In this document: positions 27,712-29,236 of the stretch, one piece after another
Position numbering within the stretch: the first letter of the stretch is position 1
Layout: each line of letters begins with the position of its first letter
NCBI RefSeq assembly: GCF_053078305.1
Contig: NZ_CP166879.1
DNA length: 64,000 nucleotides
Strand: one strand, 5' to 3'
Notes under the pieces: generated by a model
Seen by the model: only the letters and a program-made list of their open reading frames with translations
What the model was told of the DNA's origin: nothing
The model's database searches: none
Position numbers and translations under genes: made by a program

Positions 27712-28578
27712 ATGTCAGGTATCACAATCTCCCGTCCTGAAGTGGTCAACGGGCATACGGACGTTATCTGTTCCACCTCAATCGGACACATTCTGGCTGT
27801 ACGAAAGACCACACTGATGCAAATCGACACACTTATCCGGCAACTGACAGAAATCTCAGCAATGACAGAAAGTATTGGAGGTAAAACCGCCCCGGACTGG
27901 GCCATAAAACAGAATTTTCGCTGCGGTTGCTGGCTGATGGAGAAACCCGAAACAGCAATGAAAGCCATTACCCGGAATCTTGACCGCGAAATCTGGCGTG
28001 ACCTGATGCAACGTTCCGGGATGCTGTCATTAATGGATGCACAGGCACGTGATACATGGTACCGGTCACTGGAATACGATAATTTTCCGGAAATCAGTGA
28101 AGAGAATATACTGAGTACGTTTGAGCAGCTACACCAGAATAAGGATGAAGTGTTTGAGCGTGGGGTCATCAACGTCTTCAGGGGACTGAGCTGGAATTAC
28201 AAAACCAACTCACCCTGTAAATTTGGCAGTAAAATTATCGTCAACAACCTGGTGAGGTGGGACCGGTGGGGGTTTCATTTTATCACCGGGCAACAGGCAG
28301 ATCGACTTGCCGATCTGGAAAGAATGCTACACCTGTTCAGCGGCAAACCGATCCCCGACAACCGGGAAAACATCACCCTTCGTCTGGATGATCATATCCA
28401 GTCTGTTCAGGGTAAAGAGAACTATGAAGACGAGATGTTCAGTATTAAATACTTTAAGAAAGGCTCAGTACACATCACGTTCAGGAAACCAGAACTGGTT
28501 GACAGGCTTAATGATATTATTGCCAGACACTACCCGGAAGCCCTGGCAAGCACAGTGAACAAAAGCCGCAAGGCATAA
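27712..28578 (+). CDS. Hypothetical 288-aa protein at island terminus
   Basis: AAGGA Shine-Dalgarno; own terminator upstream; no family assignable from sequence alone. Confidence 0.6.
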   Translation: MSGITISRPEVVNGHTDVICSTSIGHILAVRKTTLMQIDTLIRQLTEISAMTESIGGKTAPDWAIKQNFRCGCWLMEKPETAMKAITRNLDREIWRDLMQRSGMLSLMDAQARDTWYRSLEYDNFPEISEENILSTFEQLHQNKDEVFERGVINVFRGLSWNYKTNSPCKFGSKIIVNNLVRWDRWGFHFITGQQADRLADLERMLHLFSGKPIPDNRENITLRLDDHIQSVQGKENYEDEMFSIKYFKKGSVHITFRKPELVDRLNDIIARHYPEALASTVNKSRKA

Positions 28579-28649
28579 AAGAGGTATTTTACAATTCGCG
28601 AATATTAACTATTATTAATTGATAGCAATCAATCGGCGAGAAAATCACC

Positions 28650-28913
28650 ATGCCTACCAGTGTATCCCTCAGTCCTTACTTTGAAACGTTTATCCGCGAA
28701 CAAATAGAAAGTGGTCGGTATAACAATACAAGTGAAGTCATTCGTGCCGGACTTCGTGCTCTGGAAGAACGGGAACAGCAGATAAAGCTTGAATCACTCC
28801 AGAGCGCCGTTACCGCAGGCATCAACAGCGGTGAAAGTAAAAGTGCTGAAGAGGTATTCGGGCGACTGACGCACAAATACAAAAAGATGGCAGAAGGTGA
28901 ACAGCCAATATGA
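28650..28913 (+). CDS. parD: ParD-family type II antitoxin
   Basis: 87 aa; MPTSVSLSPYFETFIREQIESGRYNNTSEVIRAGLRALEERE. Confidence 0.75.
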   Translation: MPTSVSLSPYFETFIREQIESGRYNNTSEVIRAGLRALEEREQQIKLESLQSAVTAGINSGESKSAEEVFGRLTHKYKKMAEGEQPI

Positions 28914-29236
28914 AACTGACTGTTTCACCATTAGCAGAACACGATCTTGAAGCTATAGGTGACTGGATCGCTCAGGATAATCCTGTCCGTGCAATCAGTT
29001 TTACCGAAGAGCTTTACCAACAATGTCTGTTGATAGCCGAATCGCCAGTACTCTACAGAGAAAGACCCGAATTAGGGGCTGGGATCAGAGGTTGTTCGTA
29101 TGGTCGTTACCTTCTGCTGTTCAGGGTACTGGATACTGAAGTTCGTATCGAACGTATCGTTCATGGTTCCCGGGATATCAACAGGGTACTTGCAGAGCCA
29201 GACGACAAACCATCAGATCATTTCTGGCAGCCATAA
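28910..29236 (+). CDS. parE: ParE/RelE-family type II toxin
   Basis: 108 aa; start overlaps parD stop by 4 nt (ATGA). Confidence 0.75.
   Translation: MKLTVSPLAEHDLEAIGDWIAQDNPVRAISFTEELYQQCLLIAESPVLYRERPELGAGIRGCSYGRYLLLFRVLDTEVRIERIVHGSRDINRVLAEPDDKPSDHFWQP

Follow-up and report, generated by a model that had tools for sequence, protein, structure and literature searches.

At the end of a genomic island in an Escherichia-type chromosome, a gene for a 288-aa protein is followed directly by an overlapping parDE toxin-antitoxin pair, which raises the question of whether the three genes act as one system and what the pair does for the island that carries it. In the 64,000-nucleotide stretch of DNA that was analysed (the window), the list of open reading frames gives the last three island genes as follows:

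27712–28578, plus strand: DUF4942 gene (288 aa), the terminal backbone gene of a CP4-type island; full-length match to PF13708
28650–28913, plus strand: parD, ribbon-helix-helix antitoxin (87 aa); matches to PF03693 and TIGR02606, relatives in the PDB
28910–29236, plus strand: parE, toxin (108 aa); match to PF05016, relatives in the PDB

RefSeq annotates the same three genes, with identical starts, in near-identical E. coli loci, in agreement with the original prediction, which had placed all three reading frames here. The locus is ordinary and already annotated in RefSeq, and its parDE cassette is known, identical or nearly so, from hundreds of sequenced E. coli. By sequence comparison the locus consists of two independent things, a DUF4942 backbone gene and an accessory parDE cassette. 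The value of the analysis lies mainly in correct annotation and in a precise candidate site, 28602–28628, for work on ParD-DNA binding.

Boundary of the island

The genes 5' of the DUF4942 gene are CP4-type backbone and encode a GTPase, an Ag43/Cah-like autotransporter, IrmA, DUF932, a KlcA-type antirestriction protein, RadC-JAB, DUF987, CbeA, CbtA, DUF5983 and DUF957. The last of these names is the RefSeq annotation of a near-identical locus, and a Pfam scan of this reading frame in the window gave no match. Downstream of the island end, the gene named cadC in near-identical E. coli loci starts at 30119. We conclude that a CP4-type island is integrated at the tRNA-Phe site adjoining cadC. Three non-coding features mark this end of it:

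27655–27681, plus strand: terminator-like hairpin between the DUF957 and DUF4942 genes (11-pair stem with 7 G-C pairs, then a T-rich tail; a consensus match only)
29480–29502, plus strand: att remnant, the 3' end of tRNA-Phe, one base short of the perfect 23-nt copy of other islands
29512–29537, plus strand: terminator-like hairpin directly 3' of the att remnant (terminator scan and comparison with parDE-less strains)

Within the remnant, positions 29484–29502 are the final 19 nucleotides of tRNA-Phe. The att repeat that had been proposed here is real, as the tRNA-Phe 3' end lies at this place and homology to an island that lacks parDE restarts at 29480. Since the window holds no intact tRNA gene, the other end of the island, with its integrase and intact tRNA-Phe, lies outside it; an integrase scar is retained 3' of att within the window. 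The hairpin at 29512–29537 is the first terminator-like site 3' of parE and belongs to core sequence common to parDE-less strains. A 10-nt TTCGATTCCG at 29311–29320 could be an older att scar or could have arisen by chance.

A terminal backbone gene of the DUF4942 family

The 288-aa reading frame (27712–28578) opens with an ATG start, with AAGGA 9 nt upstream. Its product had been assigned to no family, and a profile search changed this: the protein matches PF13708 (DUF4942) with an E-value of 7e-70 and 235 bits (cut-off 25), residues 87–276 covering model positions 1–190 of 190, which places it in a known family of unknown function. We also dropped the suggestion that the gene may be cargo. 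It is a conserved terminal backbone gene: the 5426 complete E. coli genomes contain it 7366 times, spread over 3931 of them (median 2 copies, maximum seven), and where an island has no parDE the gene comes last and stops about 110 bp short of a perfect 23-nt copy of att. Its dN/dS of 0.09–0.13 indicates purifying selection. The gene has its counterparts in L0010, from the LEE-flanking element of EHEC, and orf56, from the SRL island of Shigella, which occupy the same slot as the gene here in the order YeeU/YeeV/YeeW-DUF957-DUF4942 (PMC6980539). Four papers in the literature searched name DUF4942, in passing in those consulted, and none gives the RefSeq protein accessions of the locus.

An AF2 model of the 288-aa protein was predicted with confidence (pLDDT 88), and comparison of its fold with the PDB returned no match. 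Searches of the PDB by sequence, with the single protein and with a 70-sequence profile, gave nothing at E-values up to 10, and the NCBIfam and PADLOC models did not match the protein. Some members of the family carry a C-terminal class I methyltransferase domain, which the 288-aa protein lacks. This domain was found, from about residue 305 onward, in 4 of the 7 longer DUF4942 representatives scanned (319–559 aa), and one methyltransferase-bearing relative weakly resembles M.TaqI. A PHROG annotated 'DNA methyltransferase' has a DUF4942 domain near its N-terminus, and genuine phages of Aeromonas, Vibrio, Rhizobium and Pseudoalteromonas encode DUF4942; relatives from phages and from other bacteria bear it as an N-terminal module in proteins that resemble DNA methyltransferases. 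In the 288-aa protein Pfam finds DUF4942 only. Since no SAM-binding class I methyltransferase domain is present, some sources call the protein a 'restriction methylase' without justification, and we rejected that name.

Two distant standalone DUF4942 genes were seen in other contexts, one adjoining a prophage integrase and one with N6/N4 methyltransferase genes 2 kb away. These contexts are suggestive of the ends of mobile elements; two cases are too few to conclude. We tentatively raise the idea, which we think unlikely to prove correct, that the DUF4942 protein is a factor that recognises DNA or counteracts restriction or defence, or else one that acts near att in island transfer. The first of these fits its neighbours, namely the KlcA-type antirestriction protein, RadC-JAB and DUF932, and either role, if true, would be a new functional class. 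DUF4942 is among the commonest uncharacterised island genes in Enterobacteriaceae, and it merits functional work because it is common, has no solved structural relative and is linked to phage methyltransferases.

Identity of the parD-parE pair

The parD stop and the parE start overlap as ATGA at 28910–28913. ParD matches PF03693 (E-value 4e-17, 62.9 bits, cut-off 21) and NCBIfam TIGR02606 (96.9 bits, cut-off 46.2), and its residues 3–64, the N-terminal ribbon-helix-helix, align to V. cholerae ParD2 (7b22; E-value 5e-11) and Caulobacter ParD1 (3kxe; E-value 1e-10). ParE matches model positions 3–88 of 89 in PF05016 (E-value 8e-18, 65.3 bits, cut-off 23). Its best relatives in the PDB are 6x0a (E-value 3e-13), 3kxe, 7r5a and 8c24, and all eight of its PDB matches are ParE or 'plasmid stabilization' toxins with ParD-type antitoxin partners. 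With family models above cut-off for both proteins, ParD and ParE as the nearest solved structures and the ATGA overlap in place, the identification of an overlapping parDE pair in the original prediction held. The NCBIfam RelE_StbE model scored 24.3 bits against ParE, under its cut-off of 27.9, and by these comparisons the toxin is nearer to ParE than it is to the mRNA interferases RelE/StbE. Among the known systems, the Caulobacter crescentus pair ParD1/ParE1 (3kxe) and the 'antidote_CC2985' family of TIGR02606 show only moderate identity, with E-values of 1e-10 for ParD1 and 4e-4 for ParE1. V. cholerae ParD2 is the closest solved relative of ParD, and its partner VcParE2 (7r5a) matches ParE weakly.

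Comparison with ten relatives from other genera, in which synonymous sites are near saturation, gave dN/dS values of 0.04–0.11 for parD and about 0.07 for parE. Both genes are intact and under strong purifying selection. A motif H(G/A)(S/A)RD in ParE (H85 here) is invariant in 11 of 11 aligned sequences; in ParESO of Shewanella oneidensis, a C-terminal His91 is essential. Residues 93–108 of ParE form a variable 16-residue C-terminal tail that is not common to its relatives.

Extent and distribution of the parDE cassette

Comparison with an island at the same site that lacks the pair delimited the cassette:

28532–29479, plus strand: accessory parDE cassette, defined against the parDE-less island at the same site (strain 5444, L007)

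Homology to this cadC-proximal island stops after 28531 and restarts at 29480, so that a 948-bp cassette replaces about 130 bp. It is made up of a new 3' tail of DUF4942, the promoter and operator region, parD, parE and a 243-bp tail. With the last base of the cassette at 29479 and the first of the att remnant at 29480, parDE is encoded inside the island boundary, and the earlier placement of the pair at the island edge can be made exact: the cassette directly borders the att remnant on its island side.

Of the 5426 complete E. coli genomes, 472 contain the cassette, at 505 places in all, and in 458 of these 472 its identity is 99% or more. All of these places are chromosomal, with 0 of 505 on an E. 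coli plasmid, and the whole DUF4942-parDE-att block is present in 469 of the 472 genomes. About 7% of DUF4942 copies in E. coli are followed by the cassette (505 versus 7366 places), and because so few DUF4942-ended E. coli islands have it, it is dispensable for island persistence. Outside Escherichia, the order DUF4942-parDE(-att) also occurs in islands of Yersinia intermedia and Salmonella, at about 70–73% nucleotide identity.

A unit of operator, parD and parE was also found in unrelated contexts in Pluralibacter, Serratia, Erwinia, Photorhabdus, Xenorhabdus and Dickeya, on Pantoea megaplasmids and on a conjugative Salmonella IncF plasmid, where parDE is 76% identical. Counted together, the free-standing unit occurs in at least eight other genera plus plasmids. 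For many of these units, homology to the window begins at 28601/28602 and ends at about 29176–29207. This distribution points to a parDE cassette that is self-contained and horizontally mobile. Viral contigs gave a single ParD relative and thus no sign that the cassette is phage-borne.

A conserved candidate operator upstream of parD

The 71-bp spacer between the DUF4942 gene and parD contains four features, of which the last three are unstranded:

28588–28615, plus strand: predicted sigma-70 promoter of parDE (TTTACA, 16-nt spacer, TATTAT; 10 of 12 matches)
28594–28603: palindrome 1, ATTCGCGAAT; unconserved, spanning the left edge of the mobile parDE module
28602–28628: conserved 27-bp block, the predicted ParD operator; 13 invariant columns, flanks at about 0.1–0.7 bits
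28618–28633: palindrome 2, ATTGAT-agca-ATCAAT; left arm and spacer inside the conserved block, right arm lineage-specific

The promoter is the sole promoter-like site upstream of parD. In the DUF4942-linked relatives from Yersinia and Salmonella, an alignment read by eye places TTGAGT or TTGAAT, 17 nt and TATTAT at the corresponding position.

Two palindromes upstream of parD had been proposed as autorepressor operators. Both are present, the second containing the originally named ttgatagcaatcaa at 28619–28632. They lie beside or across the predicted -10 and transcription start, and some ribbon-helix-helix antitoxins do bind inverted repeats, CopASO being an example (PMC8706911). Against an operator function of ATTCGCGAAT and TTGATAGCAATCAA, in 5000 dinucleotide-preserving shuffles of the spacer (31% G+C) inverted repeats with arms of at least 5 arose in 56%, with arms of at least 6 in 21%, and two separate ones in 12%; the two palindromes are no more than chance in an AT-rich spacer. 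We further aligned 15 parD upstream regions, the window and 14 relatives, from at least 10 genera. The columns of palindrome 1 (28594–28601) held 0.3–0.7 bits and those of the right arm of palindrome 2 (28629–28633) 0.25–0.7 bits. Palindrome 1 falls beyond the conserved module, and not even the Yersinia and Salmonella loci that are linked to DUF4942 conserve it. We therefore rejected the palindromes as operators, neither standing above chance, the first being unconserved and the second unconserved in its right arm, and consider it improbable that ParD recognises them as such.

What is conserved instead is the 27-bp block. It overlaps the -10 hexamer TATTAT and contains three NTAA boxes with a 10-bp period (6 bp between boxes): TTAA at 28605–28608, TTAA at 28615–28618 and GCAA at 28625–28628, the third reading GCAA here versus GTAA in 11 of 14 relatives. 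The part of the original prediction that saw a candidate autoregulatory site upstream of parD therefore stands, and the palindromes it named give way to the conserved block: the likely ParD operator is a helically phased three-box site at 28602–28628.

This layout resembles that of V. cholerae ParD2, for which DNase footprinting defined a 33-bp operator from -21 to +13; its three boxes follow one another at intervals of a helical turn, and a 6:2 ParD:ParE complex binds it through three ParD dimers (PMC10776004). As in the candidate operator here, there are three 4-bp boxes, 6 bp apart, in the -10 to +1 region. The two systems differ in the box, NTAA here versus GGTA/GTAY in VcParD2, in the N-terminal ribbon, MPTSVSL here versus MAKNTSITL in VcParD2, with the Lys absent here, and in setting, an island edge here versus a superintegron for VcParD2/ParE2. 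CopASO differs in its site: according to PMC8706911 it binds two inverted repeats, GTANTAC N3 GTANTAC, whereas the candidate here has three phased boxes.

Proposed role of the parDE cassette

By analogy with these systems, we favour the reading that parDE is an autoregulated addiction module that stabilises the island, with a three-box operator and a gyrase-poisoning ParE, and we give it a probability of about 0.7. In this mechanism, ParD dimers, bridged by ParE in a higher-order complex, would bind the three NTAA boxes one helical turn apart, and since these boxes run across the -10 and the start of transcription, binding of ParD and ParE would repress the operon. ParE free of ParD would poison DNA gyrase. 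Were the island excised and lost, labile ParD would no longer be made and leftover ParE would inhibit the cell; because parDE lies inside the island boundary and ParD would be labile, island-free segregants would be counter-selected. The pair would then be the second addiction module of the island, CbtA/CbeA already lying 1.7 kb upstream.

Stabilisation of the island by parDE is plausible. The gene order kept in Yersinia and Salmonella islands, an intact module, its position inside att and the VcParD2-like layout of the candidate operator are all consistent with an addiction role, as is the precedent of ParESO/CopASO. This ParE-family pair is likewise carried by a CP4-type integrative element, the prophage CP4So of Shewanella oneidensis, and maintains the excised element (Yao et al. 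2018, as cited in PMC8706911). Counting against stabilisation are the att remnant being one base short, the third box being GCAA and the presence of the cassette in only about 7% of DUF4942-ended E. coli islands.

The pair may instead be a selfish hitchhiker at the island edge that adds no measurable stability to the island, for example if the island no longer excises; in an island unable to excise, addiction would have nothing to act on. Several observations point this way: the module is autonomous and has settled in many surroundings unrelated to one another, the cassette is found in only about 7% of DUF4942-ended E. coli islands, and the att remnant is slightly degenerate. Decayed, orphan copies of parE with mutations have also been reported in some strains (PMC12632120), and thus the module can decay. 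However, the order DUF4942-parDE-att has persisted in Escherichia, Salmonella and Yersinia, whose loci are about 70% identical in nucleotide sequence, purifying selection acts on both parD and parE, and a ParE pair does stabilise a CP4-type prophage in Shewanella (PMC8706911). We consider a pure hitchhiker unlikely.

Two further readings were weighed. Toxin-antitoxin modules can take part in phage defence, and a chromosomal parDE could serve mainly as an abortive defence against phage or as an anti-addiction module against related plasmid-borne parDE. Cross-neutralisation is conceivable because related parDE does lie on plasmids, at 76% identity on the Salmonella IncF plasmid and on the Pantoea megaplasmids. 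Yet none of the 505 cassette places is on an E. coli plasmid, and the PADLOC models of known defence systems gave no match for ParD or ParE, nor for DUF957; we hold either function to be quite improbable as the main one. Alternatively, DUF4942, ParD and ParE could work together as a single three-component system of the PaaR2-PaaA2-ParE2 kind, in which DUF4942 would be the regulator or a third partner. The genes are neighbours on one strand, three genera show this adjacency, and the gap from DUF4942 to parD contains no terminator-like site. But at least 10 other contexts have parDE and no DUF4942, about 93% of the DUF4942 copies in E. coli lack parDE, parDE has its own promoter-like site and conserved candidate operator, and the homology break falls inside the 3' end of DUF4942. 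Their distribution largely refutes such a system, which we judge highly improbable; DUF4942 and parDE, each found without the other, are independent modules.

A comparable arrangement has been described in other E. coli. A parDE module lies at the 3' end of tRNA-Phe islands in ST38 and ST131 and separates two tandem islands in ST38 (PMC12632120, 2025). That report is descriptive, with no operator analysis and no functional assay. We liken its arrangement to the present one by position, not by sequence: parDE at the 3' end of a tRNA-Phe island, then a second integrase or island. Strain DEC5E likewise carries a parDE module at the 3' end of its tRNA-Phe island, followed by a second integrase or island.

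The left edge of the mobile parDE module

Homology between the parDE cassette (28532-29479) and free-standing parDE modules from many genera begins exactly at 28601/28602, which is the left edge of the operator block, the conserved 27 bp (28602-28628) predicted to bind ParD and to overlap the -10 element of the predicted parDE promoter. Because the homology starts at this edge, the predicted operator moves as part of the parDE module, while the -35 region of the promoter is contributed by the local context at each new site.

A divergent gene of the SymE toxin family adjoins the free-standing parDE homologue in Pluralibacter, Serratia and Dickeya (L009, L010 and L014, respectively). 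This adjacency, seen in three unrelated genera, could represent a recurrent toxin-antitoxin cluster.

On the island itself, a further pair is found:

25978-26933, + strand: type IV CbeA/CbtA toxin-antitoxin pair, 1.7 kb upstream of parDE

Together with parDE, this makes two toxin-antitoxin modules on the island.

The att side of the cassette

The att remnant, a tRNA-Phe 3' end at 29480-29502, is closely followed by an integrase remnant:

about 29692-29862: tyrosine integrase gene fragment

Annotations of near-identical strains list this fragment as a partial pseudogene with a frameshift, and it matches at 81-85% the intact integrase of a tandem island in E. coli DEC5E, where a parDE module lies between two islands. 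The fragment is what is left of a second island that lay in tandem. Within the 243-bp cassette tail, the 10-nt string TTCGATTCCG (29311-29320) matches the T-arm portion of the tRNA-Phe att exactly; this could be the trace of an earlier att site, or a coincidence.

Other features of the window

Salmochelin genes seem to be part of the island's content:

3113-4387, + strand: IroD-like enterochelin-esterase gene
4529-5653, - strand: IroB-like, EryCIII-like glycosyltransferase gene

The remaining features were as follows:

16294-16530, + strand: IS102 RNA (Rfam match, 74.6 bits)
16474-19671, + strand: Ag43/Cah-type autotransporter gene
22384-22839, + strand: IrmA (interleukin receptor mimic protein A) family gene, within the island
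59843-60008, - strand: enterobacterial sRNA STnc630 (full-length match, 181.8 bits)

The IS102 RNA match lies directly upstream of the autotransporter gene and overlaps its start (16474).
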